Assembly: GCA_050084985.1 (NCBI GenBank)
Contig: JBITNC010000001.1
Coordinates: 157,356,001-157,420,000 of the forward strand
Source: Nageia nagi
Taxonomy: Eukaryota; Plantae; Pinophyta
Length of the DNA stretch: 64,000 bases
Reading direction: 5' to 3'
The position numbers were made by a program, and so were the translations under genes. This document shows, in pieces, positions 2,958-48,398 of the stretch (the first letter of the stretch is position 1; the number at the start of each line of letters is the position of its first letter). Below the pieces are notes generated by a model, which ran no database searches, was not told where the DNA came from, and was given only the letters and a program-made list of their open reading frames with translations.

Positions 2958-3305
2958 TTTCATTTTTGATGTTTTACTACTATGACAGCATTTGAGCAGT
3001 TGGGTTAGGCCTTGAGGACATGTTTGTTAAACATCAATATTTAAATCAGTAGCATAACTATTTTAGCTATTTGGAAATATTTATGTGGTGACTTATCAAT
3101 CTTGCTATATTCTTTGTGCTTGCATTCAAGTGTTTCATTTTTGATGTTTTATTACTATGACAGCATATGAACAGTTGGGATCGGCCTCAAGGACATGTTT
3201 GCTTATTATCAATATTTAAATTAGTAGTATAAATATTTTAGCTATTTGGAAATATTTATGTGGTGACTTATCCATCATGCTATTATCTTTTTGTATGCGT
3301 TAAGT
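2958..3305 (+). repeat. Two-copy tandem duplication, ~175-bp unit
   Basis: tttcatttttgatgtttta...ttggaaatatttatgtggtgacttatc repeated at 2958 and 3133. Confidence 0.9.
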
Positions 3306-3343
3306 ATATCATATGCAGTCCTTAAGGCTATTTATTTTACCAG

Positions 3344-3523
3344 GCAATGGTGCGAGAGCAACAAGTGCATCCTATGTGGGGATCATATGCACAGCGACTC
3401 CTTAACTCTGAAGAAAATCTTTGGCGAAATCCTAGTAATGGAGGCCATGATGACAAAGCACATCCACCTATTCACCCTACAAAGTTTTCTGCAGGAGAAA
3501 ACAATTGGAGTGCAGATCACAAG
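3344..3523 (+). CDS. TOP3A: DNA topoisomerase 3-alpha, internal exon ([20 protein letters not shown]...[16 protein letters not shown]...DHK)
   Basis: Acceptor ttttaccag at 3341-3343; 180 nt. Peptide matches plant TOP3A ([26 protein letters not shown]). Ends at a GC donor AAG|GCAAGT. Upstream exons, including the catalytic Tyr, are not in the window. Confidence 0.97.
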
Positions 3524-3706
3524 GCAAGTAACATGCTTGTATTAGGTATTTAAATCAGATTACAAGAGGAAGATTAAAGCAGATTGTGTGTAACGGTTGT
3601 TAGGTGTGAAGAGCAAAAGGTTTTAAAGAATTAGGCACTATTCTACTATTATGAAAATCCATATAAATATTGTCTGTTGATTGTGATCCAAGGCTATCTT
3701 TTTCAG

Positions 3707-3835
3707 AGGCTTTACGAGTTGGTTGTCCGCCATTTTCTTGCATGTGTATCACAACCTGCTCTAGGTGCCGGAACAACAGTTGACATTGATATTGCTGGTG
3801 AAAAGTTCTCGGTTTCTGGGCTTATGGTTATAATG
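3707..3835 (+). CDS. TOP3A: TOP3A internal exon ([18 protein letters not shown]...SGLMVIM)
   Basis: tttttcag acceptor, gtaag donor at 3836; 129 nt, phase 0; matches plant TOP3[17 protein letters not shown]. Confidence 0.97.
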
Positions 3836-4736
3836 GTAAGGATTATTCAATTTCTTTTCTTGTTTATTTTGAAAACTGAAGCTACTTTAAAAAAAAATAT
3901 ATTATTGTACATGAGGGCTACCTAATTCCTACTTGGCATGAAAAAAAGTAATGATTACAGCATAATTGATTGCATCCCCAATCAACATTAATATTAAACT
4001 GTCAATGCAGAAAATACGTATGTCTAAACTAAGTACAAACATCATCTAAACATGAGAAACACATGTCAATAAATTATGTTTTCAAGCCTTCGTAAATATT
4101 CTTACATCTCGTCTTTGAAGGGAAAATTAAGCATAATACTGTATCACATATTAGTGGGTCCAAGCAGGCCATTCAGATTGAAGTGCAATTATTAGGCTAA
4201 CAAAAAATGGTTGAGATCCATAAGTTGGTTATTATCATGAATGTCTTTATAGCCTTTTGTGATTTAATTCTCCTTGTGCAGCCCATATTTCTAATGTTGG
4301 ATACAGCAAGGCTGCTATTAAAATACTTTATGCTTCTAATTTGTGAAAAGCAAGGATAATGAAATTTTGTGTCTGTTTGTTGTTGAATTATTTTGACATT
4401 CCACTCATCCTAAATAATAATTATATTGGTTTTAGGGTGACAACAGTGATAAAATTAAATTGGAATTCTCTTTTCTCTATGCTAGTGAAATATTTTCTGA
4501 AACTGTTGTTTCGTTTCTCATAGCTTGCTTCATGAAAGACTTGTTATCAGCTGAGCCTCGTTAAGGGACTATTGTGATGTTTGATGTATGCGTTTTATGT
4601 TGTGTGTTCTTCATGGATTTCATACTTAAAAAGAGTAATATATGATAATAATGCAAATACTTGGGAATTCTTTGTCCATGTATTATGCCTATGTGGCTTT
4701 TGAACTGTATTTAACATCTATTTTCCATTGTTGCAG

Positions 4737-5739: not shown

Positions 5740-8395
5740 TGTGATGCTCCCAAATTATTCTTATTCCAAAATATTAGTGAATCAAGCAATGAAACAAGAA
5801 ATAATGAAAAACAACGAATCAATGCCACAAAACATCCAATGCACAAGCCAAAATGGAGAAATAATGCCAACATCTCAAATTATGTCATTGACGGAGCAAG
5901 ATACAACCAAATGGTCCAAGAGGGCTGACGTTTGGCTCAATGGACTAGATCTAGTGCACAATACTCTCCAAATGCTGGTGTCACATTTATAGGGCCTTCA
6001 ACCTCGTATTTGAATTGCAAAGTTAGTTTGACTAAGGGTTTTCGTCCTTAGCCAAGATCTAGTGAGGGCTACATCCCACTAAACCCTTCTCCATGTTGGG
6101 TTTCTATCCAACAAGAGGCCCAAGAGATGGCATTGCTAGTACGAAGATAGAAGATGTCAAATGTACTCAATGCCATCCTACTCTTGCGCCAACCTTATAA
6201 ATAGGATTCCCTCAAGGATGGGTTCCTACACACCCATTATGGAGACGTCATGGTTGGGCGTCCACATCATGCCTCGAGATCACATCAAATCATGCACTCA
6301 TCCTCTAATAATGCGTCATGCCTTGGGATTCACAATATTACACTTAAATGCTCCTAATCTATTTCTAGGAGGGAGACGTCCCACTTTGGGGCTCACAATT
6401 GGTCCTTGGGACCCATAAGTCTCCTATCCCAAGTTACAATGATGCCTAAGAATACATGCAACTAATAATTAAATACTCCTAGCTACAAATTACCCCTAAA
6501 AGGAACGACTTCAAGAAGGGAACATCACAGTCTTGCCTTCTCTATTTGCTTGACCTCAAGGAATACAAGATTATTGCATACCATAATTTCTTCAAAGTGA
6601 TGAAGTTTTGTCTTCAATGTATCATTGGCAACATCAATATCCATACATGCCGTGAATGATTTCTAAAGTACCATCTTCATCATATCAGCTTCATCCTTCA
6701 TGTCTTGCAAATAAGCATATATGAAATCTACTAAATCATGTCTCCCATGCTTAGCTCTGATGCATAACTGATCACAAACTGAGAAAGCAAGGGATGTAAC
6801 AACTTTTCTTCTTCCCTCCTTGTCAATTACCGAACAACCCACAACCCTTAAGCATGTGTGAACGTTTGGCAAGGGGAGTGCCAATGTTGGGTCTTCACCC
6901 ATCTCTCCCAAAAATGCAAGGGATCTCATCCACAACCGAGCTCTAATGACAGAAAACAAATCAGTCCCAATGACGCTTATGGAAGCCCACACAATGCCTC
7001 CTTCTCTTCCACACTGTATTGTTGTTATGCTCCCCTTTGACGCAGCCCATGGAGAGTGGAAGGAAGCTTTCACAACTTTGCCAAGGAACTCCCAAACTAA
7101 CCCTTCTCCAATGGCAGCCAAACCATCATCATGTGCAGCCATAATATAACCAAAAGCCACCAACGAGTTTGCTTCATCCTTGACACCTTCAATCCTATAG
7201 TGAAAATTTCTCCAAGTAATCTTGAAGAAGATCATTAATGCCCTCTTTGAAGCTGCTAGCAAGGCATGATTATGTGCTGAGCTTGGAGCATTAATATCCT
7301 CCAATGTCACCCAAACTCCCTTGATTTTGCCAGCAATCAATGCAGTCCTCCACGCATGCATTTTAGTGTCGAAACATGTGTACACAAGTTTACCAAGTGT
7401 AGCCATTGTGGTTGCTATTAACTTCTCAATGCTACCGACCTTTTCCCAACCTTGATTGTGAACCAAACTCAAAATACAATTAGAAATCAATAAAGCAAAA
7501 TCATCATTCATGACATACCTCCAACCAAGGCCTTCAAGGTCACCACTAGTTCCCCAATTTGTAGAAGAGGCATCAAAGGGTGGACGTACGGTGCCAAGAC
7601 AAGGTTTGGCTGTTCTAGCCTCACCAAACTCCTCTCTATGCATCCCAACTCATGATATCCTCTCCCCGTTGCTGCAGATGACTCGACGTTGTCACGTGGT
7701 TCCTCTAGGGCGTCATTCTTCCTAACGATTGTGACATCCTCTTGGTCAAGTGGTTTGCCTCCCCATACTTTCTCCAAATGGCTAGATGAAGCCTGAGGAA
7801 AGTAGTCCTTGATACCTTGCATTGTGTACTCCTTCCCATCTACTTCACACTTCATCACCAACTTTTGAGAATTTGAGCGGATGTCTCCCAGGTTTTTCAA
7901 CCGTTGCACTCCAAAAATCAAATGTGGAATACCATCCAAGGGGTATACGTAGAAGTCTTCCCTAGCCACATAGTTGTGGACCCTTACTCCAAACTTCTCC
8001 ATTATCTTGTCCACCAATGTGAATTTCCCATTGGCGTTGGTCATATGAAATCCCTCAAACTCCTTGGTCTTGAGTCCCTTCTTGTGCACAAATTTATCAT
8101 CAATGAATTTGTGTGTGGTACTCAGATCTATCAAGACCATCACCTCTTGGTTTGCAACCATCCCTTCACCTTAAGCGTGAAATATTTAGGTAGTTCACAA
8201 AGTGATGCAATCATATCTCCTATAGCATCCTTACTATCAGGAGTAAGGCATTCCAGCTTCAAATCCAAACCTCCCAAGTCTAGCAACAAATCTGAATCAT
8301 CATCCTTCGAAAGCATCTAAATGTAGTGAAGTTGACCCTTGCCCAAGCACCTAAGGCCATGCTCCCAAGTTTTCTTGCAACTGAGACATAGGTTC
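5740..8395 (-). mobile_element. Element A: 3' part of a non-autonomous Ty3/gypsy element (gag C-terminus, protease, unknown ORF, PPT, 3' LTR 5740-6529)
   Basis: LTR with tgtgatg...catcaca termini. Purine-rich tract agagaaggcaagac (minus strand) just 5' of the LTR. Gag Cys motif NLCLSCKKTWEHGLRC at ~8345-8395. Interrupted at 8396 by element H1; 5' half not found. Confidence 0.85.
7810..8161 (-). pseudogene. Ty3/gypsy aspartic protease remnant (VLIDLSTTHKFID...HLIFGVQRL)
   Basis: Degenerate LIDSGATHNFI and ILGxxWL retropepsin motifs; not followed by RT. Confidence 0.85.
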
Positions 8396-9504
8396 TATTG
8401 ATGTGAGTTTCTTTCCCCCCATGGGAAACAATGCCGTAGAGGTGAGATAGCATGACCTACCCCTACTTGAAAGGATTCTAACCCCAAGGTTTACTTTATG
8501 GTTTGGCAAATGTTCAGTAATGGTGGCTTAATGGTTGTGTGTTTCTCTCCTTTGTCACAAGATAACTCTGGTGAGGATGTGCTCGGGTGATTAACTCACA
8601 ATTTGTTACGGACCTATTGGGCTCTTTACAATATAATGTTCTCGTGGTTGTACGTAAAAGCAAAAAATGGTGATTGAATTGACTGGTTGATGGAAGTGAT
8701 AAATGATGGCTTGTAATTGTTGTGTAACGTCTAGTGTTTTATTTCTTGGATTTATTATGATGCTTCACAAACTAGCAGGCAAGGAGGATAATGACTGAGT
8801 TCTAATCCCCTCCAAGCAAGAGCATGGGGAAACAATCAAGGTGGACAACGAGTGAAATGAATTGTTCATTTATCATCCCAATGAAGCATTCTAATCAAAT
8901 GACATAGGAATAAAGGATCCTAGAATACAAGTCATGTGCAAATCGTAGAAACAACTATTCATATGCTTAAGAAAGACATTCAACTGTCTTTTCCTAAAAT
9001 GCAAAACTTTCAAAGAGAATGATCATAAACATACAAATAACCAACTAGACAACATACCAAATATGTTATATAGCGAATCCACTATCCCACGAAATAAAAG
9101 GCATCACTTGCATTAGCATTAATACCAGAGCTTCCTTGAAATGACAAAGCAATGTATACAACTGGAAGCTTCAACTCCAAAAGCCCTTCCTACAAAATGA
9201 TCCAACTCGAGTACTTATAGCATCAAGTTTGACACCCTCATTAAATGAGGTGTTGCAGTGTTTCCCGAAAATAGCAAAAGGAAAACCTAATACTATCAAA
9301 GCAAATACCATCAATTATAAAACTGTCAAACATCATGAAACCGAGACCACAAAATACTGCTATCACACCACATCAAACTTTCTTGTGGTTGTGGAGCAAA
9401 AACTCATCCTTCATAGCACAAGTAAAAGAAAGTTTCATATGAATTTAAGATATAAAGTCTTTTGAAAAACTTCCTCTCCAACTAACAAATATGCATTTTT
9501 CCCA

Positions 9505-12500
9505 TTATGCATTGGCATCTCCATCATGCATGGCAAGAAAGGCTTCCTCTGGAATTCCATTTGAATCATCGTTGAAGAAAGTCTTTGCCTTGGAGAATCC
9601 TACGGCAAGTGCTCTTGGCAAGTAATCATCCTTCCTGGTATGGAAATTTGCGATGCAACGAGAGGTACATTCCATCTGGAATTTCCAAATGAAAAGCTTT
9701 TGTTGGTTTTCAACGTATCTTCCCACCTTGAGCAAGTTCACATCCTTGGTGAAGAGAAGCTCTCGGACAATGTTCTGGACTCTATGGGTGATAAGCTCAA
9801 TCTTCCTTGTGCTCCCATCTTCATTGATGTACTGGATTTGTTTAGTGAACTGACCCATCTCAAAAGCTTGGGTTATCAACAAGTTTGACCTTGTTTTAGT
9901 CAATTTCATGCATTCATCCTCTACATATTTTAGCCAGCGCAAATGGTAGGAGAACTCCTAACAATACTGTATCATATCCGGATGACTCATCGACATATTC
10001 CTTAGATTGTGCATGGTTTGCTCGTGAGTTTTCATTGATTCTAATAGCTAGGACATCGCGGCAGACATATTCTCGTCTTCCTTTTTCTCGTCTATGTAAT
10101 ATCCCTTTTGTAATATATTTATTATTGCGTTATACTTTAAGTTAATACTTGGGATAGAAGACTTAATGGGTCAATAGACCCTAGTGTGAGCCCCAAAGTG
10201 GGACGTCTTCCTCTCAAGCATAGAATGGCTATTTCAATATACTTGGAGATCCGAGTCATGATTATGGGAATCCCAATGTCTATTCAGCACTTAGATCGAT
10301 GGATGAGCACTTGTATACATGCGCTAGCCTTGGGGAGACTCTTAGATCCCCACGTTGGCCCATGATGACAACTAGCCCCCACACATGGCTCCTATTCCCA
10401 CGTTGGGCATGCGTGGCACTCCAGATAGCCACGTTGGCACTCAGGTTCCCCACGTTGGCATGCTTGACCCCTAGGCACCCACACTAGGCATTCTGTGCCC
10501 TCCTACCCTTTAGGAGGCACACTTTGGTTTAGAGGAGCTAGTAATGTTTCCTAGGTGAGATCCAGATCCAGCCAAGTGTTATAAAAGGACATTTGAGCCT
10601 TATTACTGGATATACTTGATCATTATACTTTCATATCGTCCAGAGGACAACAAGTCTTAGCGGTGCTAAGCAACCTTCCTAGGCGCAACATCTAGAGGGC
10701 ATTCAGACTGAGGGATCCTGTCTGTCTATGACATTGGCACAATGCCCTTGTCCACCCGGTGGTATTCCGAGGTATTGGTTCTATCATTCAGTTGGTTATC
10801 CAGGATAAGAGAAGGGCTCCTTCGCTGGAGAGGATTTGGGTTCTAAGGGAGCGTACTGTCCCATTATGCCAATATTGTTCCAGATAGAGGCATTTGTGTT
10901 ATGCCCTAGTTGGCTCCTTAGAGGCCATTGTTAGCCCTCCTAAGCTTTGTATTGTATTGCATTATTTCATATCATTTGTATACTGTCAAGGACAATTGGA
11001 TCTCATACTCGTGTTGTGTTTATTCATCTTGTGCATGTGTTGGATCGTCATTGTTGTATATGCTTGTATTTATCAGACGTTAGCATTATGGTGTACAGTT
11101 GATCGGATAGTGAATGTTCTAGCCAGACGTGGGTTTATTAATGTTGTGTATGTGGAATATTGATTCCCTAATGCTAATGTTGTCGTCTTTAGAGTTTGAA
11201 TGCTTATTGTGGATGCCCTAGGCTTGAAGTCATGGTGATTGAGGTTGAATTTGCCTATTTTGTATCCGAATTGCATTTTGGATCATCGTAGTCCATGGGA
11301 TTGCAACTTGGAGGGAAAGCTTGTTCACTACCTTCATGACCCCATTCACTAGGGCTTCTTTTGTCGGGGTTATGCCAATGTTTAATGAGGCTTGCTGCTT
11401 GATGTCTTCGATGGACATTTTGGTAGCTTCAATCTCTTTCACCATCTTGTTTTTACTAGCAAGCTCTTGCTTTGATTCCTTGATCTTTTGCTCCTTCTCA
11501 ATCTCTTGGTTCACCATCGTGTCTACATTATAGTTGATGGTTTGTTTTCTCCCCGTTCATCAAATTTTCTTGACCTTATATTGCTCGATGTGGACCTGTA
11601 CATCTTGCAAGCCTTGAGGGTGTCTTTGCTTCGAGTTACACCTGTTAATATTCATCGTGTCCTTCTTCATAGAAACAAAGGTCTCAAGCTCTTCAACCAA
11701 GAATTCTTCAGATGCATTTTCCATTCTATGATTGGAATCTTCATCATCTCTTCGATATCTTACTTGCAGATTTTTTATAACTGCATCAATGTCGAAATTG
11801 TATTCTTTGTGGGGACCAGAACTTGCGTATGCGACATTGGCCGAGTTGGTATCTTTGTTTAGGAATGTCTTCGATCCTTAGAGGGTTATCTTGAATACTT
11901 AGGGCTTATGGCTACCATGCTCTAGTTGCTTTCTCTTCTTTCTCTGTTCTTCATTTTCACCCTTGTCCTCCTCATCTACTCCATCACCTCTCAAAGGAGG
12001 AATTATCTTGCTAGGAATTTATGGTTTTTTGGGTGTCGCTTTGTGAGCCTCCTTTCCGAGTGGCGATCTCTTCATCTTGCATGGGATAGTGGACTCAAAG
12101 GAACCGAATTGCTTAATTGGCAGTGATCCTGAATGTACAAGTTCACTTGTAGTCTTAGATTCTCCTTCGACGTCCACAAATTGGATGTCTTGGGAGCTCG
12201 TCTGGGAGTGATCATCATCCTCATGTTCCGTTTCTGCATCATCCTCTTGCTCTATTTCTGCATCATACTCCCATTCTTCTGAGTTGGATTCCGATGAACT
12301 AGAAGAGTGAGAGGATCCCTCAGAACCTGAAGAATAAGTGGATGAAGAATGGTGAGGTGAAGCTGGCTTTTCTGTTTGGTTTGCAATTGGAACTTCAACA
12401 ATATCTTCATCATCCGCAGGAACTTCAACTTCAACTTGGTCTTCCGTAGGTGTTAAGAGATTGGGAATGGTCAAAGCAAGTTCTAGTGTAACAGGAGCAA

Positions 12501-14194
12501 CAAGAATTATGGGAGCATATCTTGGAGTTGCATCCTCGAATTGCTGGAGATGGAAGTCTCAATATCCAATCTCCTCCATCACTTCGACATCTTTCGTTAT
12601 TTCTTGAAACATAGAGTGAATTTTTGGTCTGATGCCATCTAAAGTAGCATGCTCTCTTGATGCCCTTTTCGTCTTCTTACCCGCAAGGAGGAGGTGGATC
12701 TATCATTGGTGTTCATGGAAGGCTTAGTCAAGGTTTGAATTCTCCTGTCAATTCTCGATTCAATAGCTAACATTTGGTGCATGTCTTGGGTCTACCTTTC
12801 TTCCCTCTTGTTTTGGTACCTTTCCTTCTCTTCCAGGGGCTCATGTTCATAAGTGATAGGATTCCTGAAGGCCCTCCGATAGAAAACTAGGATCCTCTCA
12901 TCTGTATCGTAGTGTTTTGCTGCCAATTCTTCGCGCAAAGTGGTAATATGTTAATTCATTCTTCATCTCCTTGGCCTCATTCCAACTTGTGCATGTATAC
13001 TTGCCAATAGAGATAGGCAAATTGATGGTAGCGTCTTTCTTTTAGCATACATTCTCATATAGGAACAACAATTGTTTGCCGAACTCCATCAGGATGAGGC
13101 TATTACTTGCGTATGTAGGTAGGAGATAGGGTCTCTCTTCGAATCCATGGACCCTAATTTAAGTATGAGTTGGGTCCTCAGGGAAGAAGTTGGCATGTCC
13201 CCTGATAGCTTCCACAACAGAATTAGATATTCTTTTTACCAATTGTCTCCCTTTTATTTCTTTGTATATTTGGTACTCCCATTTGTCATTGCTAATGGTG
13301 AAGTTTACTCAACGTGCTTCCAACCATCATTTGGGAGAGGCGGGTCCTTACGGGCTTTGTGGGGTTCGTTAGGATATCCATATCTACTTGGGTTGTCCTT
13401 TTGTTTTTATCGTGGAGGAGGAGATAGATGAGGTATGAATTCATATAAAACCTTTTGGAGGACCCAATATGGGCTAGTTGCTGGAGAAGTGCGTTCTTGA
13501 TCACCACACTCCATCTGATCATTTGTCTATTCCTAATTAAAGCAATGAAACCGGTGAATTCCTTCTTGAATTTCAAGTCGTCTTCTTTTTCCAAGAGCCC
13601 AGATAACATATTGATAATTTTGGAGACGGTGGGGTAGAAGTGTTGTCTTTTTGCATTGATGAACGTGTTCCTTGCAAACTCCTTTTCTTTCATTTTCCAT
13701 CCAATCCCTAATGAGGTCTCCATCCCTGTGAGACTTTCGATAGTAGTCTATAGAGTCTTGGTCAGTGTAATCTACTCCATCCTTACTCCATTTGAAGGCT
13801 TCCTCAATGCCCTTGGGAGAAAAATCAAGGATTTTATTGCCATTGATATTATAGAGGAGTTTATCCTTGGAGTTTTAGTACCTCCCTACTTCACAACATA
13901 GCTTAGGAAAAGGTATTGCAAATGGGAACATGGTGGTGGTGACCAGACCAGATTTGCAAATAATGTCATCGAGCATCTAGGTTTTGCTTCACCTGGCTAT
14001 GGATTGCAACGTATTGTTTGGATCTGTGTGTGACAAGTAGGTGTCTTGGATATTGGCAAGGTTATTTTTGAACGTCGCTTGTTTCAGGGAATCCTCAAGA
14101 TTTTCCTTGGTGAATTCTATCAAACTCAGCCAGGACAATCTAGCTTTTAGCTAGAGCTCTCTAGTTTTTCTAGAGTTTTGAATTAATCTGACAT
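9505..14194 (-). pseudogene. H1 ORF, ~1,160 codons after removing nested LTR 10095-11290; unknown protein (globular N-terminal domain, acidic/Ser-rich linker, coiled coil, conserved C-terminal domain)
   Basis: ATG at 14194-14192, stop at 9505; ORF-track pieces 13292-13723, 12019-12474, 11230-11517 and 9505-9942 match the H2 ORF; several stops and frameshifts. Confidence 0.8.
10095..11290 (+). mobile_element. Solo LTR (family I), 1,196 bp, nested in H1 ORF
   Basis: tgtaatatccc start; TSD gtcta/gtcca; TATA tataaaagg ~10580; homologous to 32006-33296. Confidence 0.85.
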
Positions 14195-14241
14195 GTTGAA
14201 CCTGTAGAAATGAGACACCTGCAAAACAAAAGTAGTTAGTG

Positions 14242-15412
14242 TGTAAAATCTCCAATATAATGTCAAGTGCAAATCATCCAAATAATTATGAAATAATAAA
14301 AAACTACACCCTTAAATAAGCCATGTCTGGACTAGGGCAGCAAACACACGCAAAAACAAGCTAGAAATGCTAACGATCCCCTTAACAAGCAAGAATATCA
14401 CTCAAATGCCCAACGTCATGCACAATGAGATAAGATTGCATCAAATGTACACAATTATGAGATAAGAATGAGATCCAAGTATGCGACAACTTCAATTAGC
14501 AAGATAATGATGAGTACAATACTGTACTAGCCCAAGAGGGCTCAATGTTGGCCTCCAATGAGCCAACTAGGGCATATGAATATGTAAATATGATCACTGC
14601 TGGAATAATGGATGGAACAGCTACACTCCCTCAAGATCTGAATCCTCTCCTCTGAAGGAACTCTCTCCAAACCCTAGAAACTAACTGAATGGTAGGACTG
14701 CAACCTCAGAGTACCATCGGTTGGATTAAGATGCTACTCCTTAAGCGTAGATTAGCAAGATCCCTTAGCCTGCTAACCCTCCTTGATGCTGCACCAAAGG
14801 GAAGATTGCTTGGCGCTGTGTCCAAGACTTATGTCCACTGGATGGTAGGAGAAATAATATCAAATTCAATATATCCATGCAATGATGCTCCAACGCCTAA
14901 TATAACTCAAGTGTGGATCTAGATTATCACTTCGGAATAATCCATGCCTCCCCTATCCAATGTTAGCCTCCTAGAGGTCCTCAAATGCCTCAAACATGTC
15001 ATAAATGCCCATGTGTGGGGTTTGGAGCCTTCCTAAGGTGTGACATGGGCCTCCAAGGGTGATGGCATGCCTCCAAGTCCAACATTGGGGTCCTTGAAGT
15101 CCCCTCATGTCATGCGTCGGGTTTCTAGGAGTCATACATGTGTCTAGATCCTATTTTCATGTCCATACAAGTCCTCGGGATTCCCACAATCAATTCTTGG
15201 GATCTACAAGTACATAAAAGAACATTAAATTATGCTAGCCTACGCTTGGGAGGAAGACATCCCACTTGGGGTCCACAGTGGGGTCCAATGGACCATTATT
15301 ATTTCTATCCCAAGTAGTAACAACAAATACATGAATAAATAAATAAATATTTACTTGGGAGGAATCCTTATGATTCCACATTTAATTATCTTTTACAAGA
15401 GAGGATGTGACA
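14242..15412 (-). mobile_element. Probable solo LTR, ~1.17 kb, nested in H1 leader
   Basis: tgtaaaatc...gatgtgaca termini; U5-side like 22399-23365, U3-side like family I; TSD only 3/5 (tagtg/taatt). Confidence 0.7.
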
Positions 15413-17253: not shown

Positions 17254-17299
17254 TTGGGCGCAAGATCCCTTGGTGTTTGCAAAAATGTCCCTCAAAAAC

Positions 17300-18500
17300 C
17301 ATGTGACCAATCTTGGAGAAAAATGATCAATATGAAATGGGGCTAAGTGCAAGTGCATTTATAGCTTTGAGGAGGACATATGTAATGACAATACATGTTT
17401 AGATGGTGGCTAGAGGACATGTGTCATTCCTTTCCGTGCATGGGTCTTTCTAGCCTGGTCGCACCATTTCCTAGAGATGAAATAGTGACTTTGGTGAACT
17501 ATGCGACCAACCTTAAGGGGAGTGACTGCTTGCAATAGTGAATGCTAAGGCCCACCCTTTTATAACTTGATAGATTGATTAGTGGCATTGCTTGCCTGGA
17601 TGGAAGGGAGGCCTTAAGCAAGTGTTATATTTTCCTTATGCAAATGCAAAACAATGGTGGTCGCTCATCTTCTTATCTTTACAAATGTATCTTTCTTGAA
17701 AGAATCAACCAAGGATGGGGAGAGTCTGTGTCCCACACTTAGGTGAAAATAGGCCTCGAATGGTGGTCGCACCCCTTGAAAATGATGCAATAGTAACCTC
17801 CTTGGAGTAAGTGACCAGCCTAAATGCATTTAAAAGTTTATACTTAGTCAATTTTTTCTCAAGATGGGCCTTGAATGGGGGTGTTCGCACCTTTTTGAAA
17901 TAGTTACATAAGTATCTTTTGGGAGAGGTGTGACCAGCCTTAGAAGTGTTGTGCTTGGCTAATTTGCCAATTAAAATACCAAGAGGGGGCAAGCCACCTT
18001 TCTCAAATTTTAGAATTGTATCTTTCATGTGATATGCGACCTGTCCTTAGAATGAGGAAAGATCCATACTTAACTAAATTTTAGCTCAAATTGACCAAAT
18101 AGGTGGTCGTAGCTACAAAAAGTGTGACCAAAGTATCTTTCTAGATGCATGCGACCATGAAAAGGGAGGATTATTGCTCTTGCACTTAATCAAATTTATC
18201 TCCAAAACTGTCCAATTTGCTAGCTACACCTTTTGGGGAAGTTAGGAAGGTATTGTTTTGTCAGCATCCGACCACTTGTGAAAGCCATAGACTTAATCAT
18301 TTGAAGAAATGAGGCCTATTTATAACCATTTCGTTGCTAGTTGTCTTCCATGCAAGTGTCCCAATTATGCCATGTGGAGCCCAAACATAGAGTGGAGCAA
18401 CGGCCTTAATACCCGGTCTTGACACTAACTTCTCCCTTTGGTTGCACCATATAGAAATGTTAAGAATGTAACTTATTGGGAGCATGCAACCAACTTGAAG
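17300..18500. repeat. Degenerate ~115-120-bp tandem array with TGGTCGCA-N38-TGCGACCA inverted motif pairs (H1)
   Basis: Pairs at 17456/17502, 17764/17810, 18104/18150, each with a 38-nt spacer. Confidence 0.8.
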
Positions 18501-18559: not shown

Positions 18560-19290
18560 GAATTAACAAATATCAAATTATTCTTCTAGGCATGCAATGA
18601 ACTGATCTAGAGCATCGAACATTCAAGAAAATAGGCCACAAGGCTCAACATCTCACTTCTCAAGCTAGAATACACCAGAATGAGCGATCATTGCACTAGG
18701 GCATCTGCTTATCATGCAAAATACACCATAAACAAACCTAACAACATGACATCACACTCAAGGAAGCAAGATATCATCAAACACATGTTAGTATGAGGCA
18801 ATAATGGAAGATCAAATGCACCGATGCTTAATTAATGGAGACATGATGAGTACAAAGCAATACTAGGCCCAACATCACACTCAAGGAAGCAAGATATCAT
18901 CAAACACATGGTAGTATGAGGCAATAATGGGAGATCAAATGCACCGATGCTTAATTAATGGAGACATGATGAGTACAAAGCAATACTAGGCCCAAAAGGG
19001 CTCAATGTTGGCCTTCAAGGAGCCAACTAGGTCATATCAATGTGCAAATCTGATCTCTTAAGAGGATATGCTGCAGAACAATCACACTCTCCCAGATCAC
19101 TGACGGGCTTCCTCACATGCTAGCTCCCGACAAAGGGAACAAGTGCAATTCTGGAATGCCATTGGATGGATTCAAAGATGATTACATCTTATGGACGCCT
19201 CAAAGAAGGGCAACCTCACAACACGAACAATCACCTCAACCGCTAATCAAAATGTGTTCCAAGCCTCTTGGACTCTCCCTGGTCTACGTC
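18560..19290 (-). mobile_element. Truncated LTR fragment (R/U5 similar to families I/D) containing a 123-bp tandem duplication (18749-18871, 18872-18994)
   Basis: gggctcaatgttggcc...gagccaactagg shared with ~14540-14570; duplicated units differ at 2 positions. Confidence 0.65.
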
Positions 19291-25300: not shown

Positions 25301-25591
25301 TGGCTTCTTGGAGACCAACGTTGAGCCCTGTGGACCTGGTATTGTATCATTTGTCATTCTTCATCATTTCTACAATTGTGGGCATATTGGATCTCAACAT
25401 TTGTCCTGTATTTGATGTGTATGCTTCCTTATTTGCAATGTTGAGGTGTTTCGGTGCATTTATGGTTGTATGTGCAAGACGTTGGCATTGGGGGTTTGTT
25501 TATGCTTGAATTTGAGGCTCTAGGCTAGACGTGGGAACATATTTGCTTGTTTTTGATTATTTGTACTTAAGATTGTGATTGAGATGTTACA
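22399..25591 (+). mobile_element. Element D: LTR 22399-23365, PBS tggtgtcaaagc, short internal region homologous to element C, truncated second LTR 24723-25591
   Basis: Two similar LTR copies; 23775-23966 peptide TPPRIEVLLQFYQG matches element C ORF; internal deletion near 24220; no matching TSD. Confidence 0.75.
24225..24722 (+). mobile_element. 3' end fragment of another LTR (…aaataaatcaacaccaaca), inserted in D's second LTR (left bound approximate)
   Basis: Ends in CAACA exactly where D-LTR homology resumes; terminus resembles those of H and M. Confidence 0.5.
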
Positions 25592-27283: not shown

Positions 27284-27823
27284 GCATGCGGTCGGAAGAG
27301 AGGCGTAAGAGAAGGATGTAGGGCTTGGAGGAAGTCCTAGAATGCCCCATAGTCAAAGATTTGCCTCTATTCATGAATGGGAGCCAAGAGGGGATGTGCC
27401 TTTGCATAGATCTCGTGAGTGAGATCATGGAGTGATGTCTTTGCATAGATCTCATGAGAGAGATCATGGAGAGGAGGATTTTTTGCATAGATCCAGAGGT
27501 TATGGCATGACCAAGAAGGTTAAGGATTCGAGTGGGGAGAGCTTGTGTTTCAAAGATCTCGGTCAACCATAATGATCGACGGAGGAGGGCCTTCTTTACT
27601 TAGAACGGGATACACTAGGGCCAGAGAGCCATTATGGTAGAAATTCATGGAGAGAGGCGCACAGATAATGGACGCCTCACCTCCCCCTCTACCACGTCCC
27701 AACAAGCCTATGTTCTTGTCAGGTAGGAAAGCAACACGAGCATGATTTCACCGCAGGAGCTCAATCAGTTGTACCGAGAATACGCCTTCAACACAAGAAT
27801 TCAAGAATGATGTCACCTTTTCT

Positions 27824-28404: not shown

Positions 28405-29611
28405 TGTTGACTTGTATTTCTTTTCCCTCCCCGCGGGAAAGGACACCATGGATGAGTGGAGTAGCGTTACTTACCCTCGCTTGAAAGGACTTTAATCCCA
28501 AGGTTCCTTCAAATTATTATGGACTATAGGTTTTTTTTTTATAGCAAATTTTATGCAATGGTTGTTGATAGTCGACATGATAACTTCAGGGGGAGGTATG
28601 TGGTCGAGGATGGTTACTCACAATTTTGTGGACCTATTGGGCTTTATCTCTATCAATGTTCACGTGGAAACACACAAAGCAGAGGGAATATAAAGTGAGA
28701 TACGAAAGTTTTGCCAGTTGAAAGGAGGATAAGTGACATGATCTCACCATTGTGTAGGGTTTGAAGCTTTCATCTCTCGGATTTATTAGGTTATCAAGCA
28801 AGGGAGGAAGCAATTGAGTCTGGATCACTCCCAAGCGAGAGCACAAGGCAGTAGTTAGGGTGGAAAAAGAGGTGAAGTGAAACATTCAGTTATCTATTTC
28901 CCAGTAGAAGATTCCAACCAAATGTTATAAGAGTAAAGTGATTCAAAATACCACAACTTTACCCAAACCATAGAAACGGTCGTTCATGCATCTAAGAAAA
29001 ATATTCAACTATCTTTTCCTAAAGTGCTAGACATCAAAGAAAATGCTTGTAAATGCATAAACAACACAATAACATCATTATGTCATTTACATATCCATGA
29101 TTCCACGAAATGAGAGACTATACTTGCATTTAAAACAAAGTTTTGCAAAATTATAGATCATACATACATTTATAAATCTCAACTCCAAAGTGCTTCCTGA
29201 AAGATTTGCATACAATTCAAAAGACTCCTAAAGAACATGTAACTTTTCATACATCGAAGGATTCTTGATCTATCTGTATATATCCCTTTCTTTCTATTTT
29301 CCTCCCTTTTCAAAAATGACCCAGCTAGGGTATTGATAGCATATGTTTGACAACGTCATTAAATGAAGCTTCATCCTGATATTGATTGCAATGTTGCCCT
29401 AAACAAGACAGCCCTAATACTATTTTGAACTATGTAAACCATCAACAAAACAAAATTGTGGCTACACAATACCGCTCGAATGTCACATCAGTGTCACATC
29501 ACATCACATCAAATCAAGTCTTCTTGCAGCTGTGGGAGCAAAAACTCATCCATCACAATGAACTTAAAATAACAATTGTCTTAAACTGAAAAATAAAATA
29601 GCATTTATCAA

Positions 29612-32600
29612 TCAACCCTCTGTAGGACCGACAGTTAAACTGCGAGCAACATCAAAGACATTGGGAATCCTATAAGACCTTTCATCAAAGAAGGCCTAGC
29701 GTTGGCGAGCCCTACAACAAGTACTCCAAGCAAGTTGTTATCCTTCCTTTTGTGAAAATGCAAGATGTATTGAGAAGTGTATTCCATCTGGAATTTCCAA
29801 ACGGCGAAATGTTGTTGATTTTCAATGTGTCCCTACCCTTAACAAGTTTACGTCCTTGGTGAAGATAAGCTCTCGAATGGTATTCTGGACATCCTGAATC
29901 ACGAGCTCAACTCTCTTGGCACCACCATCTTCATTCAAAAACCTGATTAGTTTCACAAACTGGCTCATCTGGAAGGTTAAGGTAAAAGACAAATCGGTCC
30001 TGGCCTTGGTCAAATTGTCACATTCTACCATTGCAAACCTTAGCCAACGCAGGTGGTAGGTAAATTCTTGGCAGAATTGTATCTTGCTTGTTTGTCTTGT
30101 AGACATTATTTTCAGATTCTGGATGGTCTTCTCATGGTTTTGAAAATCCTGCAGTAAATGGGAAATGGCTGTAGTTGTTTTTTCTTCTCCATTCTACTCG
30201 TTTGCGAGGGCAATCAATCGATGTGAAAGGTCATTGACCACTCTCATTATGCCATTGACCAAGGTTTCTTTGGTGGTTGTGATACCAATATTCAAGGAGG
30301 CCTGTAGCTTAATGTCTTCAAAGGACATTTTAGCAATTTTTGTTTCCTTCACCAATTTATTCTTACCAACCAACTCCTTTAGCTTCTTTATTGTATTCTC
30401 CCTCTCGATACCTTGGTTGACCATCTCATCCACATTATAGTTAATGGCGTGTTTAAGCCCGACCCACCCAATCTTTTTAGTTTTGAATTCTTTTGTGTGG
30501 ACGCTCACGTCTTGAAGGTCTTGTGGATGTTTCTTCTTTGAGTAGCACCTATTGATGGTCACCGTATCCTTTTTCATGAACACGAAAGTGTCGAGTTCTT
30601 CAATGGGGGATTCCTCGAAGGCACTTTCTCTCCTCTGGCTATATTCTTCGTCAACGCTGCAATACCTCATCTTTAGATCCTTGATGATTGCATCAATATC
30701 AAAATCATATTTCTTTTGCGGACCATAACTTGATGCAATATTGGCCAATGTGGTATCTGTATTAGTGGGAGTGGATTCCCTGGGAATCTCCTCGATTATC
30801 AGCTGTTGGTTTTTGACCTCATTTGGCTTATCTTTGATTCTCAATGGTTTGTGGTTGCCATGTTCTAGCTGCTTCCTTTTCTTTCTTTGTTCTTCATCCT
30901 TGCCTTTATCTTCTTCATCTCCTTCGCTAGTTCCTGCATTCGATGTTTTGTTCAGCTTTGAGGGTTTGATGGGGGTCGTACTGGATGCTTCTTTCTTAGG
31001 TGATGACCTCCTATTCCTCCTTGGAGTGGTGGATTCCGAAGAAGTGACTTGTTTCTCGGATACTGATCTAGTTGATAAAGTTTCACTAGCTATCTTAACT
31101 TTGGACTCTCCATCAACGTCCACAATCTGGGTGTCGCTCGTGTGAAGCTACGAGTCTTTGTTATCCTCATGTCCCCTTACAATTTCTTCTTCTTCTCCTG
31201 AACTAGACTCAGATGAGCTAGAAGATTCAAAGGATGTCTCATAATTTGGAGAAGAATTGGAATGAATAGGCGAATCAGGCTCTCTAGACTAATTTATTGC
31301 TGGATTGCTTTGCTCTTCTATTTGGGTGTCCACGTCAATAGGCTCAGGGAACTTAATCTTTGCATGATCTTCTGTGTGTGTCATGAGATTGGGGATAGCC
31401 AAGGGATTTTCGACCCTGATTGGCATGATAGGCGTTATAGGAATATCCTTTGGGGTGGCATCCTCGAGCTGTTGCAATGGGAAATCAAGGCACCCAGTTT
31501 CGACCATGATATGGACATCTTTGGTAATTTCTTTCTCAACAAAATGAATTTCAGGTCCAGAACTGCCTAAGGTAGCATGCTTGCCCACCCGTTCTTGGCG
31601 TCTCCTCACTCTTGTTGAGAAGGTAGATTTCTCACCTGGGGCCGCTTGAGGTTTGCTTAAATTCTGGATTCTTTGGTCAATTCGACCTTCTGCTGCCAAT
31701 ACTTGGTGTACCTCCTGAATTTGCTTATCTTCTCTTTTATTCCTATATCTCTCCTTGTCTCCTAGAGAGCTGTGCTCATAAATTACTGGGTTTTTGAAAG
31801 CTCTCTTGTAGTAGACTTGGATTTGCCCTTCAGGATCATAATGAGAAGATTGTTGCTCCTCACAAAAGTGATAGTAAGACAACTCCGTCATCATTTCTTT
31901 GGCATCCTGCCAAGTTGAACAAGTATATTCCCTCATGGAAATTGGGAGGTTCCTTGTGGCATTCTTCTTTTTCCATATATTTTCATGTAGAAACAACAAT
32001 TGCCTTGTGGTGATCCAAAATGAAATTCTACCACAAACTAGCAATTTCGGAGCATCAAACCTTAACGTTAGGTCTAGGGCATGAAAACTCAAACATAGAA
32101 ACCCTCAAATGCCAACGTTAGGGTCAGAACATTCAATACGAACTACAATAATGGAATTATGCCAATGTCTAAGCTAGGGCATCCATATTACACATACTTA
32201 ACACCAAGATGCCAACTTCTAACTATAGCATGCAATATTCAATCAACAATACATCATAATGCCAACGGATGATAAGTACAAGCATAAACAAACACAATGA
32301 TCCCATGCATGCACAAGATGAGTCAACGCAACACAACCATGAGATACAATTGCCCTTGACGATATATAAATGATATGAAGTAGTGCAATACAATACCAAG
32401 CCCTATGGTGCAGTCGTTGGCCTCTTTGGAGCCAACTAGGGCACAATAATGTATATCCTCGATCACTGGAAAAACAACGAAACAATGGGAGAATAATGCT
32501 CCCTCCAAACCTGAATCCTCTCCACTGAAGGAGCCCTCCTCTAATCCTGGATAACCAATTGAATGGTAGAAGCCATACCTCAGAATGCCATCAGATGGAT

Positions 32601-34413
32601 AAGGCATTGAGCCAATACCATAGACAGATAGGATCCCTTAGCCTGAATGCCTTCTAGAAGCTTCTCCTAGGAATGTTGCTTAGCACCGCTAAGTCTTGAA
32701 GTCCGTGGACGATATAAGAGATTAATAATCAAGCATGTCTAGTAATGAGGCTCCATTGTCTATTTATACATTAGATCTACCACCGTCTCACCTAGATGTC
32801 ATCACCTAGCTCAGCTTATCCAACCTTGACCTCCTGGGGGCCTAGAATACCCAAGGTGGATGTCTAAACGTTAGACATGCCAACGTGGGGTCTAGGGGTG
32901 CATTAAGTGCCAACGAGTGAGCTAAGGGGTGCCATGCATATCCATGTGGGTGAAGGGGGGAATACGTGGGGCCTAGGTGTCATGCTGGGCCAACGTGGGG
33001 TATGGGAATCTCCGCAAGCCTGGCTCAAGCATATAAGTGGCCATCCATCACCTCAATGTACAATAGACCTTGGGATTCTCACAATCAATATCGGGATCTC
33101 CAAGTACACAATAAATGCCTAATTTATCCTTAGGAGGGAGACGTCCCACTTGGGGCTCACAGTGGGGTCCATTGACCCATTAAGTCTCCTATCCTAAGTT
33201 ACAATTGTAAAGTGTAAATACGTGAATAAAGTATATTACAAAGAGGAACCTTTCGAACCCCACAATTAATTACAATTATCCAAAAGGGATATCACATGCC
33301 TTCAGAATTCCATGAGGATCAATCGATTGTTGGCATAGCGGGGCAGGAGATATAGCCTGACTTTAAACCGTAGATGCGAATATATGTATGTGAGGGGTCT
33401 TTTAACAGATAATCCGCATGCGCTCGGATGGCCTCTACAACATAATCTAATATCCATTTCACCATCTGCCTTCCCTTTATCTCCTTGTATATCTAGTATT
33501 GCCATCCGTTGTTCCTCATGGCATAGTGATCCCACCTAGATTCTAGCCACCATTTGGGATAGGCCTTCCATGTAGGCTTCGTTGGGTCGTTCAAAATGTC
33601 TGTATCTTCATATGCTGACTTTCTATTTTTTCCATGGAGAAGGAGAGAGACAAGATACAAATTCATATGGAACTTCTTTGAAGAGCCGATATGAGCCACT
33701 TGTTGAAGGAGGTAGTCTCTGATTACTTTGCTCCATCTGATCCTTTGCGTATTCCTTATTACAACAATGAAAGTGATAAATTCCTTCTTGAACTTGAGGT
33801 AGTCCTCCTTACCAGTTACCCAAGACAACATACTGATGATCATTGAGACTGTGGGATAGAAATGTTGTCTCTTTGCATTAATTAATTTGTTCCTGGTGAA
33901 TTCTTTAATTTTGTTCTCGAGCCAATCTCGGATGAGATCTTTGGTTCGTTGAGATTTCTTGTAATAATCCAGGGAATCCTTTTTTGTGTAGATGACCCCT
34001 TTGCCACTCCAGTTGAAAGCGTCCTCAATGCCCTCCATGGAGAAATTGAGGATCTTATTACCATTTGTGTCATAAAGCGCACGGGTTTTGTAGTTGGCAT
34101 GTCTACCAACTTCATAACAAAGCTTGGGGAAAGGTGTGGCAAACGGGGTAAGGGTGGCCGTGGCCAATCCGTAGGTGCAAATGACCTCGTTGAGCATTTG
34201 ATTCATCTCTAAACTGCTAATGGATTGCAAGGTTCGTTTGGGATCGGTATGTAACTAGTAAGTATCTTGAATATTGGAGAGATTATTTTTGAACTTGGCC
34301 TCCTTTAGGGGATCTTTGGGATTCTCTTTGGCAAACTCAATCCGAGAGGGTTCAGTAAACCTTACTAGTTGAAGTTCCTGAGTCTTTCTTAATTTGGAGT
34401 TTATTTTTGACAT
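29612..34413 (-). pseudogene. H2 ORF, ~1,170 codons after removing nested LTR 32006-33296; unknown protein starting MSKINSKLRKTQELQL
   Basis: ATG 34413-34411, TGA 29614-29612; ORF-track pieces 33493-34230, 31289-32005, 30194-31123 and 29822-30106; homologous to the H1 ORF. Confidence 0.82.
32006..33296 (-). mobile_element. Solo LTR (family I), 1,291 bp, nested in H2 ORF
   Basis: tgtggtgat...gatatcaca; perfect TSD TGCCT (32001-32005, 33297-33301). Confidence 0.92.
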
Positions 34414-34899
34414 AATGACCTTGCTAAACAAATTGAGTTAGTATGGAGTAGACTGACTGATAGACGTAATGGGGATGGTACGGGTAGGACGAGTATGGTG
34501 TATAATGCCTAGCAATCCTGTATGCACTTTGAGATGAGGAAGATGATGCATAAATGTAGGTGAGACTTGAGACTTAATGCTTATGACAAAAGTGGTCAAT
34601 CTCCTTACGTGCAACATCCAAAATATGAGCCTTAAACAATTAATGCATATGCACATCCTTTAGCTAATGGGAACCATATGAATGCACGAAGGGCTTGGTT
34701 GCACGTTTCAAGGATGTTATCTTTCCAACTTAGATGGATGTGTGATCAGTATGGAGATTGACTTGATGGGACATGGCCAAAATGAAGGCATGACGTATAA
34801 ACACAAATAATAGACGACTAAGTAAATAAAACCAAACTTCAACGTGTATCTAAGTGTGGGACCTCTTCCTCAAAATGAGACTTCTTTGATGCATTCGTG

Positions 34900-36200
34900 G
34901 AGAATTTCAAACAAAGATGCAAATGTGACTCATGGATCATGCGACCATGCAATTTTGACTAAAACTTGCAATTCTAATGGGTGCATTGTTTTCAAAAGAT
35001 GGATCCTTATCCTCTTGGCACCTTGCGACCATGCACACCTAGGATGGCTGTTGTAAAATAAAACCAATGCAAATTTTAATGACCAAAAAAGGGTGGCCAA
35101 TAAATATGGACCATTTGACTTTAATGCAAAAAAAGGGGTGGTCACATATTCTAAAAGAGATGCAATTGTGACTTAGCAAAATCATGCAACCAGCCTTGGA
35201 GGGGTAAATGACATGCAAAATTTGACCAAGCCTCCTACTCTTATAGCCATCTTGATTGCCGAGTGGCAATACTTCGGTGGCTGAAGGAAGGATTTTGAAC
35301 AAGTGTGCAATTTCATGCAAAATGCTATGGTCGCATCTCTCCAGAAAGATGCAAATGTATCTTCTTCAAATAATGCAATTAGGGATAGGCGTGCCAAAGT
35401 GCCAAAATGAAGCCAAAAGGGTGGTCACATGTTTCCCAAAAGATGCAAATGTAAAGTTTTCAAACCATGTGACTAGCTGAAAAACCCTCAAAATGGACAA
35501 CTTCAGCTCAAGAGTGCTCAAAAAAGGGTGTTCGCGCCTTTCTCAAAAAATAGAAGAGCTACTTTTCCTGACCATGCGAACAACGTTTAGGGGTGTTAGG
35601 CTAACACTTAGCCAAAGTTCGAAGATCAAAACATAGGAAATGGGGTGGTCGCACCCTAAAAAGAAGATGAAATTGTAACTTTTGCCAACCATGCGACCAC
35701 CTTGGAGCAACACATTAGACCAACTAAAGTAAAATGAAATTTCCCTGCTCTCCTTTTATACTAACTTGTCATGCCATGTGTTTATTGCTAAATGGCTAGA
35801 TTGGAGGTCGAATGAGATCATGAATGCACATTAAATGCCAAAATGGGTATGGTCGCATCTTGTAAATCATGTGGCCAGCTTAGAGGATGAACTTTGGGCA
35901 CACTTAACCAATTTATAGGCTAAAAAATGCTTTGAGGGGGTAGTCCCACCTTTTCTAGATGTGAAGGTGACTTTTTCGAACTATGCAAACGCCTTCGGAG
36001 GGATTGGCTTGGTAGAATTTTAGCCTTTTGCCTTAGTCTCTTGGGATTTTTATAGACCGACGCCAAGTGTCATCAAAGGGGCGGCCATTCTAGAGAAGAA
36101 AATGAGAATTATGATCACAGCCTTAAAAATAGATGAGAATGTATCCTCCCTTAGCCATGCGATCACCACTTTTGATTTGAAAACTTGGAGATTTTGCACA
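34900..36200. repeat. Degenerate tandem array with TGGTCGCA-N38-TGCGACCA pairs (H2)
   Basis: Exact pair at 35646-35653/35692-35699; degenerate pairs near 35139, 35422, 35528. Confidence 0.8.
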
Positions 36201-48083: not shown

Positions 48084-48157
48084 GAACATACTAGTTGAAA
48101 CATGGCTATATACCATTTAAATTTACAATGACTCTTGGGTGTTGAATGCGTCTGCAG

Positions 48158-48247
48158 TTCATTCCAACTAGGTTGACTCTTGATGCAAGCATCACCAGAC
48201 CACCCCCACTGTTAAGTGAAGCAGACCTGTTAGGTTGTATGGATAAG
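48158..48247 (+). CDS. TOP3A: TOP3A internal exon ([30 protein letters not shown])
   Basis: ctgcag acceptor, gtacat donor; 90 nt; continues the protein directly after GQQ with no missing residues. Confidence 0.96.
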
Positions 48248-48398
48248 GTACATTCACATTGCGTTTCTTCATTGTAGAATTTCGTTGTAACGAATATTTC
48301 TGAGGTTAATAATGTGATATTTGAGCAATTCTGAATTTATGGTTTATGTGTGATGCATATGGGAATATATTTTCTCATTCTGAGCTTACCAATTGCAG

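Follow-up and report, generated by a model that had tools for sequence, protein, structure and literature searches.

Decayed copies of a once-constrained gene beside 3' LTRs in Nageia nagi, and a candidate VANC/PMD-fold anti-silencing protein

What did the two long, broken coding regions, here called H1 and H2, encode when they were intact, and what did their product do for the element that carried them? Both lie in a 64,000-nucleotide stretch of the Nageia nagi genome (the window), and the question touches a wider one, since the role of extra ORFs in plant LTR retrotransposons is long open (PMC7264820, PMC11963269). The reading that we favor, and to which we give an about even chance, is that H is the decayed remnant of a sense extra gene placed before the 3' LTR, whose VANC/PMD-fold and likely nuclear product likely bound motif pairs and acted against silencing. 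An initial annotation had proposed a once-functional, possibly nuclear accessory protein distantly related to PMD, Tat or Athila ORFs. Its outline stood, given the past selection, the adjacent 3' LTR, the lack of a membrane helix, the basic patch and the fold match to VANC21, whereas Pfam membership did not. The 3' LTR, the splice acceptor and the motif array, i.e. the context that tells what H is, had been left out of it.

Two dead copies of a gene under past purifying selection

H1 and H2 are dead copies, and functionality applies to their ancestors (Table 1). Each is frameshifted and contains an LTR of ~1.2-1.3 kb; among aligned codons, H1 has 15 stops and H2 has 4, with further stops in the unaligned parts. 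Once the inserted LTRs are removed, H1 measures 3,476 nt (~1,159 codons) and H2 3,503 nt (~1,168 codons), as worked out by hand from the LTR junctions (provisional ends had given 3,478 and 3,527). The similar lengths first proposed (~1,160-1,170 codons) are thus retained, but not as open frames. Likewise, the shared N-terminus MSKINSKLRKTxEL is correct for H2, where MSKINSKLRKT is literal, whereas in H1 it is read only across two frameshifts. The domain motifs listed at the outset were found in H1 and H2, and an RKKR(K/R) basic patch is common to both copies and to the relative P0058.

Table 1. Features of the H1 and H2 loci (positions in the window)
Feature	Position	Strand	Remark
3' LTR of H1 element	8399..9470	-	Approximate start; terminal ...CA at 8399; preceded directly by a purine-rich tract; leave-one-out E 5.2e-20
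H1 coding, 3' part	9505..10094	-	Up to stop codon
LTR of other family, inserted in H1	10095..11305	+	TG...CA; target-site duplication no longer present
H1 coding, 5' part	11306..14194	-	Pseudogene; N-domain (VANC/PMD fold predicted), acidic/Ser linker, basic patch, C-domain start
Acceptor-like sequence before H1 ATG	14202..14239	-	CTAAC branch point, T-rich tract, two AG acceptors; 1 nt short of strict filter
Second inserted LTR, same foreign family as in H1	14241..15412	-	Splits H1 from its upstream region
H1 upstream degenerate repeats	17255..18492	-	5 inverted pairs of TGGTCGCA type, spacing 46-47 bp; also TATAAATA at ~18324
3' LTR of H2 element	28405..29612	-	Approximate start, ~at H2 stop codon; terminal ...CAACA at 28405; leave-one-out E 1.1e-22
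H2 coding, 3' part	29612..32000	-	N-domain end, linker, basic patch, C-domain
Solo LTR inserted in H2	32006..33296	-	5-bp target-site duplication AGGCA
H2 coding, 5' part	33297..34413	-	Pseudogene; N-domain
Acceptor-like sequence before H2 ATG	34420..34441	-	CTAAC branch point; AG acceptor 6 nt before ATG
H2 upstream degenerate repeats	35131..35963	-	2 inverted pairs of TGGTCGCA type, spacing 46 bp

The ancestral H gene was under strong purifying selection across the whole ORF. The synonymous-biased change noticed between the copies in one block (13622-13660 versus 33844-33882), where all six differences are synonymous, extends over the gene. Indeed, H1 and H2 differ at 27, 24 and 56% of first, second and third codon positions, and NG86 counts over 1,072 gap-free codon pairs give a pN of 0.24 for a saturated pS of 0.76. 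With corrected ends (1,063 codons), a maximum-likelihood codon model yields an omega of 0.105, far from the value of 1 that would have spoken against constraint (2dL of 452 versus omega = 1). The same model gives 0.053 for the N-domain, 0.274 for the linker and 0.094 for the C-domain; for both shifted frames, omega is ~2.

Relatives of H were sought in several collections. A homologous-protein search returned no longer relative among 910 candidates, two scans of IMG/VR gave none, and a protein-atlas search with P0039 had no usable match in named clusters. Among the sequencing runs listed, H occurred in a single DNA run, of which it made up a small share, and in no RNA run. A third copy at ~59-62 kb was considered and ruled out, tblastn with 69 proteins matching nothing outside H1 and H2.

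Position, strand and leader of H

The DNA past both H stop codons matches a profile built from four other LTRs only (E 5e-20 and 1e-22). The polarity of these LTRs is fixed by the TATA sequence CTATAAATAG, which lies on the H strand in three of the four profile LTRs, and by a purine-rich flank before TG that is common to two of the four. Because H ends directly before the 3' LTR and in the sense of the LTR, it is not antisense: it is a sense ORF ending before the PPT and the 3' LTR, with a polarity that rests on the TATA and purine tract of the homologous LTRs. H1 and H2 are colinear throughout, from their upstream repeats across the gene up to a shared LTR end, and an X1 contig runs out of the H-adjacent LTR into the C-terminal region of the H gene.

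This arrangement bears on another origin, namely that H derives from a MULE/VANDAL-like DNA transposon, is a captured host gene that happens to adjoin LTRs, or is an antisense TatIII-type PMD ORF beside an LTR of misread polarity. MuDR elements are known to encode VANC, the search for a pol next to H was negative, gymnosperm TatIII elements have an antisense PMD ORF (PMC4408406), and the TATA is degenerate in the H1 and H2 LTRs themselves. However, the colinearity of both copies up to one LTR end and the contig joining LTR and H argue against it, as do the intron-free coding part of H, the TATA and purine tract on the H strand, and the lack of a transposase among the 78 ORFs scanned. We consider this origin unlikely. 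The gag fragment at 27893-28400 had also been a candidate for a gene to which H is antisense and was rejected: gag stops at the H2 LTR end (28405), and the matching point beside the H1 LTR end is occupied by a different neighbor, namely a piece of gag-PR in the opposite orientation.

The parent was probably a gymnosperm non-chromovirus Ty3/gypsy element. Its pol and PBS were not found in the window or in L001-L003, nor was its 5' LTR found, the contigs aligned on the H2 LTR end displayed no PBS, and the scan for RT and IN motifs gave chance-like matches only. Within H itself, the initial annotation saw no gag, PR, RT, IN or DDE motif, and Pfam agrees on the pieces scanned.

Upstream of the ATG, three of the four gene starts present a CTAAC..AG..ATG geometry that passes a strict filter, the fourth (H1) missing it by 1 nt; as a background, 51 of the 3,169 ATGs in the window pass. 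From this sequence arrangement, H was likely translated from a message spliced at the CTAAC..AG site. In the same vein, the sense orientation, the position directly before the 3' LTR and the putative acceptor before the ATG recall the 'env-like' sense extra ORFs (eORF-3'F) of Athila, Bagy-2 and gymnosperm TatII elements. Splicing of the sense extra ORF is reported for Bagy-2, and Neumann et al. found eORF-3'F in 26% of 27 TatII elements, with 166 ATHILA ORF-1 matches in the 3'F position. Unlike those env-like ORFs, H has neither a membrane helix nor a PF03078 match.

The same likeness invites the view that H is envelope-like in the retroviral sense, with a membrane or cell-to-cell movement function, as proposed for the Athila and Bagy-2 sense ORFs. 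Besides position, orientation and acceptor, a weak feature-space lead to ATHILA ORF-1 (0.86) and the helical C-terminal stretch agree with it, but the N- and C-domains are devoid of any hydrophobic 19-mer above 1.5. A hydropathy scan of eight proteins revealed no transmembrane helix, with top 19-residue values of 1.0-1.5 in N-domain proteins; the sole 19-mer above 1.5 (1.93) belongs to the Pro-rich linker of H1 and is below 1.0 in H2. The conserved basic patch, the VANC-like fold and the lack of a BFVD match at E<=0.001 (with a poor model) also speak against an envelope, which we regard as very improbable. The H protein was likely nuclear instead.

Predicted fold of the N-terminal domain

The N-terminal domain of H is predicted to have a VANC/PMD fold, with a moderate match. 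The good model is that of the N-domain of an intact relative, ~42-43% identical to H2 (alignment A5), and not of H1 or H2 themselves (pLDDT 80, pTM 0.75). VANC21 bound to DNA (PDB 9LNK), set as the test structure before the comparison, ranks first of 48,161 chains, with a Z of 6.1 and an rmsd of 4.8 over 236 aligned residues (model 3-275). The runner-up chain reaches a Z of 3.6 and no other row has more than 107 aligned residues, while the VANC21 match has a sequence identity of 9% and a Z below the tool's advisory value of 8. The structural comparison suggested at the outset thus gave a VANC21 match on the relative's model, but Foldseek on the PDB returned nothing for that model at E<=0.001, 9LNK being absent among the rows shown. 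For H2 itself, whose first model was poorer (pTM 0.39), 9LNK was not among the matches listed; with that model, Foldseek on the PDB had no match and VIA gave helical bundles only (Z<=5.3).

At the sequence level, membership of the Pfam families first suggested is not supported. None of 53 H relatives had a sequence-to-HMM match to PMD, Transposase_28, Transposase_32 or ATHILA; for PF10536 (PMD) and PF04195 (Transposase_28), the count was 0/53 at E<=0.1 and 0/10 in a further Pfam scan. The H pieces and relatives scanned had no Pfam match to DUF1985 and no HMM match to PF03078 (ATHILA ORF-1) or PF20167 (Transposase_32). The feature-space values for Transposase_32 (0.87) and ATHILA ORF-1 were both below the lead threshold of 0.9, and PDB sequence searches gave no match of note.

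Upstream motif pairs and a possible anti-silencing role

The upstream repeats of H2 are homologous to those of H1 at 17453-18243 (E 1.5e-28). All seven inverted TGGTCGCA pairs of the window lie upstream of H1 (five) or H2 (two), with a spacing of 46-47 bp. The relative L001 displays eight pairs at the same 46-47 bp with another core, TAGGCGCA, and none with the TGGTCGCA core. These cores were chosen after their enrichment had been seen; a motif-blind test gave a modest signal, with three, three and six pairs at spacing 46 versus means of 0.4-0.8, a fourth array being without a peak. Since there are only two motif/protein subfamilies, co-evolution of motif and protein is suggested and not shown.

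Under the anti-silencing reading, H would bind the inverted motif pairs in the upstream repeats of its own element, probably as a dimer or larger oligomer that bridges ~46 bp by means of the helical C-terminal part of the protein, and this binding would keep cognate copies unsilenced. The model for such a system comes from VANDAL DNA transposons, for which PMC5735166 describes sequence-specific protein anti-silencing as established, with VANC proteins that recognize motifs specific to their own family within tandem repeats and that co-evolve with these motifs. H resembles VANC21 (DUF1985) of VANDAL MuDR elements in the predicted fold of its N-domain and in the family-specific motifs found within the tandem repeats of its own element; VANC is predicted to have a helical oligomerization region beyond this domain, and such a region is suggested for H. 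Unlike VANC, H resides in an LTR element and not in a MuDR DNA transposon, has ~1,160 residues, is 9% identical and lacks a DUF1985 match; the motifs of its element are inverted pairs 46-47 bp apart, and their binding by H is putative. VANC, moreover, is described as dicot-specific.

The VANC structure has also been reported to resemble MAIN/PMD, and MAIN/MAIL1 are among the known systems closest to H. Like the PMD eORFs of TatIII/Ogre and the Transposase_28 ORFs of Retand, H appears as a retrotransposon accessory ORF near repeat arrays, a class thought to be nuclear and DNA-binding. Those ORFs are mostly antisense, whereas H is sense and is not detected by the Pfam models PF10536 and PF04195. 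PMD-fold proteins act in silencing too, so that the shared fold shows no function (PMC5418596).

This leaves a considerable, if smaller, probability for a VANC/PMD-fold accessory protein with another job (transcription activator, RNA or particle chaperone, integration-targeting factor), the repeats then serving host factors. The selection, context and fold evidence fits such a protein equally, about half of H (the linker and the constrained C-domain) has no assigned fold, and Tat-type elements commonly contain tandem arrays of unknown function in their 3' internal region (PMC11963269). Nevertheless, a common 46-47 bp spacing with a core differing between the two H subfamilies is expected if the element encodes its own specific binder, and the chain that ranks first in the structural comparison is an anti-silencing factor in complex with DNA.

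More broadly, LTR retrotransposons of giant-genome plants might encode a VANC-like anti-silencing system made of a protein and co-evolving inverted motif pairs with a fixed 46-bp spacing, a tentative proposal that we hold at less than even confidence. For TE-borne PMD proteins, anti-silencing is only speculated on in the parts of the literature concerned here, which leave it open for LTR lineages. If true, 'env-like' ORFs would include the VANC/PMD fold, the system would be older than the dicot VANC genes, and these elements could multiply despite heavy methylation. It would also be relevant to the part of LTR elements in the making of very large plant genomes and supply programmable parts for epigenome editing. 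With its two subfamilies, two motif cores and single spacing, H lends itself to a direct test of the idea.

Two decayed gene copies and their relatives

H is a real feature, an extra ORF of an LTR retrotransposon that is dead in the window. Its two copies, H1 and H2, align over their full length and, without the inserted LTRs (hand-corrected from the insertion junctions), span 3,476 and 3,503 nt, respectively. Both are pseudogenes, with 15 stops among the aligned codons in H1, 4 in H2, and frameshifts besides. The initial annotation proposed that the changes between them are biased towards synonymous ones, and this is borne out: all six differences between 13622-13660 (H1) and 33844-33882 (H2) are synonymous, and a maximum-likelihood codon model gives, rather than a value near 1, an omega of 0.105 over 1,063 codons (after removal of stops, gapped positions and the ~30 codons at the end), a figure made imprecise by saturation of synonymous sites (NG-type counts over the ORF: pS 0.76, pN 0.24). 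By part, omega is 0.053 in the N-terminal domain (N-domain), 0.274 in the acidic/Ser linker and 0.094 in the conserved C-terminal domain (C-domain), with ~2 in shifted frames as control. Past purifying selection on H is clear, since decay after its death only raises omega.

Features of the window
Feature	Position	Strand	Remark
H1	14194-9505	-	aligns with H2
H2	34413-29612	-	aligns with H1
Foreign-family LTR inside H1	10095-11305		target-site duplication no longer present
Foreign-family LTR inside H2	32006-33296		target-site duplication AGGCA
Type IA topoisomerase exons	3326-3835, 48146-48503, ~55120-55250	+	Pfam Topoisom_bac
One ~1.2-kb LTR family, at least 8 copies	10095-11305, 14241-15412, 22510-23365, 24723-25591, 32006-33296, 36867-37818, 38560-39650, 42245-43430
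gag and protease fragments of other elements	25921-28400 (+), 7511-8398 (-), 36560-36860 (+), 43373-44035 (+)		RVP_2 E 0.0045

H forms a repeated family, as contigs of DNA run X1 cover 30/30 bins of 27000-36000 and one of 2,098 nt joins the LTR to the C-terminal part of H. With the H2 N-domain as query, phmmer returned, at E<=0.001, 53 cluster representatives, of which 32 pass at 1e-10; the ten looked up are all without a name. A profile search found an open 758-aa relative, P0058 (42% identity over 98% of the query; cluster mate of 838 aa), and on three contigs with relatives the similarity extends into the C-domain. Pfam families of interest had no match in 13 window pieces, the 53 relatives and 10 longer relatives; Atlas gave Transposase_32 (0.87) and ATHILA (0.86) as leads only. 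H is assigned here to none of env, the plant mobile domain (PMD) and VANC, the anti-silencing proteins of VANDAL MuDR transposons. In the literature covered, mostly outside subscription journals, we found neither an account of the H protein family, which Additional files 1 and 3 of PMC6317226 may contain, nor a VANC-like protein/motif module in any LTR element. Related work, represented by excerpts, includes PMC5418596, PMC1142308, PMC2633040, PMC13468544, PMC12844716, PMC6719617, PMC7264820, PMC11963269, bioRxiv 2024.04.02.587720 and bioRxiv 2024.09.27.615353, with Wright & Voytas 2002 and Vicient 2001 represented through citing papers.

Position and polarity in the parent element

Homology between H1 and H2 extends 1.1 kb beyond the stop codons to ...CA ends at 8399 and 28405, beyond which their neighbours differ. 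This stretch aligns with 50868-51982, 52600-53574, ~60000-58994 and one repeat of L002 (L001-L003 being fetched contigs with H relatives), and a profile from those four repeats alone matches both H flanks (E 5.2e-20 and 1.1e-22). As the TATA and purine tract of the LTRs of H1 and H2 are themselves degenerate, polarity was based on the homologous LTRs: CTATAAATAG lies on the H strand in three of the four and a purine-rich flank before TG is common to two, so that H reads in the LTR sense. By these sequence marks, H shares the sense of the adjoining LTR and stops immediately ahead of it, in the position of eORF-3'F in excerpts of Neumann et al. (PMC6317226, where the Athila row of Additional file 5 is shifted by one column). 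A DNA transposon, a host gene or a misread polarity is an unlikely reading.

TatII or Athila parentage would fit by position; parent pol, PBS and 5' LTR were searched for in the window and L001-L003 and none was found. In the covered sections of PMC4408406, Tat lineage III of gymnosperms has a PMD eORF in antisense, and none was seen in lineage II. The two LTRs at 50868-51982 and 52600-53574 (+) are 81% similar to each other and ~50% similar to the H LTRs; both have a purine-rich tract ahead of TG, and neither adjoins an H.

Predicted fold and upstream motif pairs

No membrane helix was found, the best 19-residue hydropathy being 1.0-1.5 in N-domain proteins; a lone window of 1.93 in the H1 linker is absent from H2, and a true envelope protein is very improbable. 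A first H2 model was poor (pTM 0.39) and had no match in structure searches. The N-domain of the intact relative on L001 gave a better-scoring model (387 aa, 61 sequences, pLDDT 80, pTM 0.75), and the VANC21 structure (excerpts of PMC13547354) was set as the test before comparison with it. Foldseek returned no match with this model; VIA placed 9LNK, the complex of VANC21 with the DNA it targets, at the top of 48,161 entries (Z 6.1; 236 residues of model 3-275 aligned at rmsd 4.8), where Z below 8 may reflect a common arrangement only and matches standing clear over most of the domain are trusted, as is the case here (next-ranked Z 3.6). From this comparison, which covers the N-domain of a relative, the H N-domain is predicted to adopt a VANC/PMD fold.

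Upstream of the genes, H1 17453-18243 and H2 35136-35963 share degenerate repeats (E 1.5e-28). At up to one mismatch, and with all spacings from 38 to 55 bp admitted, seven inverted TGGTCGCA pairs occur in the window, five upstream of H1 and two upstream of H2, all spaced 46-47 bp, and 100 shuffles per region gave zero. L001 has no pair of this core and carries a 183-bp array with eight TAGGCGCA pairs, also spaced 46-47 bp. The cores were picked only once enrichment had been noticed; in a motif-blind count, spacing 46 is at or near the top in 3/4 regions (3, 3 and 6 pairs; means 0.4-0.8), without such a peak in the rest of the window. At 58994-61825 (-), an H-related LTR without H coding sequence is preceded by a decayed 183-bp L001-type array (60484-61825; no pairs at one mismatch, five at two, all 47 bp), probably a deletion derivative retaining the motif array.

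CTAAC, a pyrimidine tract and AG precede the ATG in H1, H2, L001 and L002; a strict acceptor filter passes three of these four starts (H1 is short by 1 nt) and 51 of 3,169 window ATGs, the four being two related pairs rather than separate cases. L003 911-1333 repeats, in inverted orientation and at 79%, the region with a TATA that sits ~750 nt ahead of the L001 relative, which suggests an internal promoter in that subfamily.

We see an even chance that H encoded a DNA-binding regulator of VANC/PMD fold keeping copies of its own element open. A spliced message would start either at the LTR or at an internal TATA (18324 in H1; ~2063 in L001) and yield a nuclear protein, whose paired N-domains would read the inverted motifs, and the element would stay open. 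The two H subfamilies differ in core and agree in spacing, which may echo VANC/motif co-evolution (excerpts of PMC5735166), two cases being no proof, and some other regulatory role for H is a possible, less favoured reading. The regulator reading would link H to VANC-type anti-silencing in a testable manner.

Genomic setting

The window comes from a plant nuclear genome and holds nested remains of LTR elements between gene exons. Pfam Topoisom_bac matches at 3635-3922 and 48384-48623 (E 5.7e-07 and 1.4e-08) mark a gene resembling topoisomerase III alpha (TOP3 alpha); H1 and H2 sit antisense to it within a ~44-kb intron full of old LTRs, and such an intron suggests a gymnosperm host. X1 contigs cover the ~1.2-kb LTR family far more deeply than anything else, and a Met-type PBS at 37819 adjoins one copy. 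The gag/protease fragments presumably belong to a chromovirus lineage, and no RT or integrase remnant was found anywhere in the window. Between two LTR copies, a long frame at 39705-41666 (+; 434 + 218 aa around a single stop) has no Pfam match and is possibly just the shadow cast by a decayed gene of the opposite strand. Local tandem duplications lie at 2958-3312 (175 bp, 88%) and 18749-18995 (123 bp, 98%).
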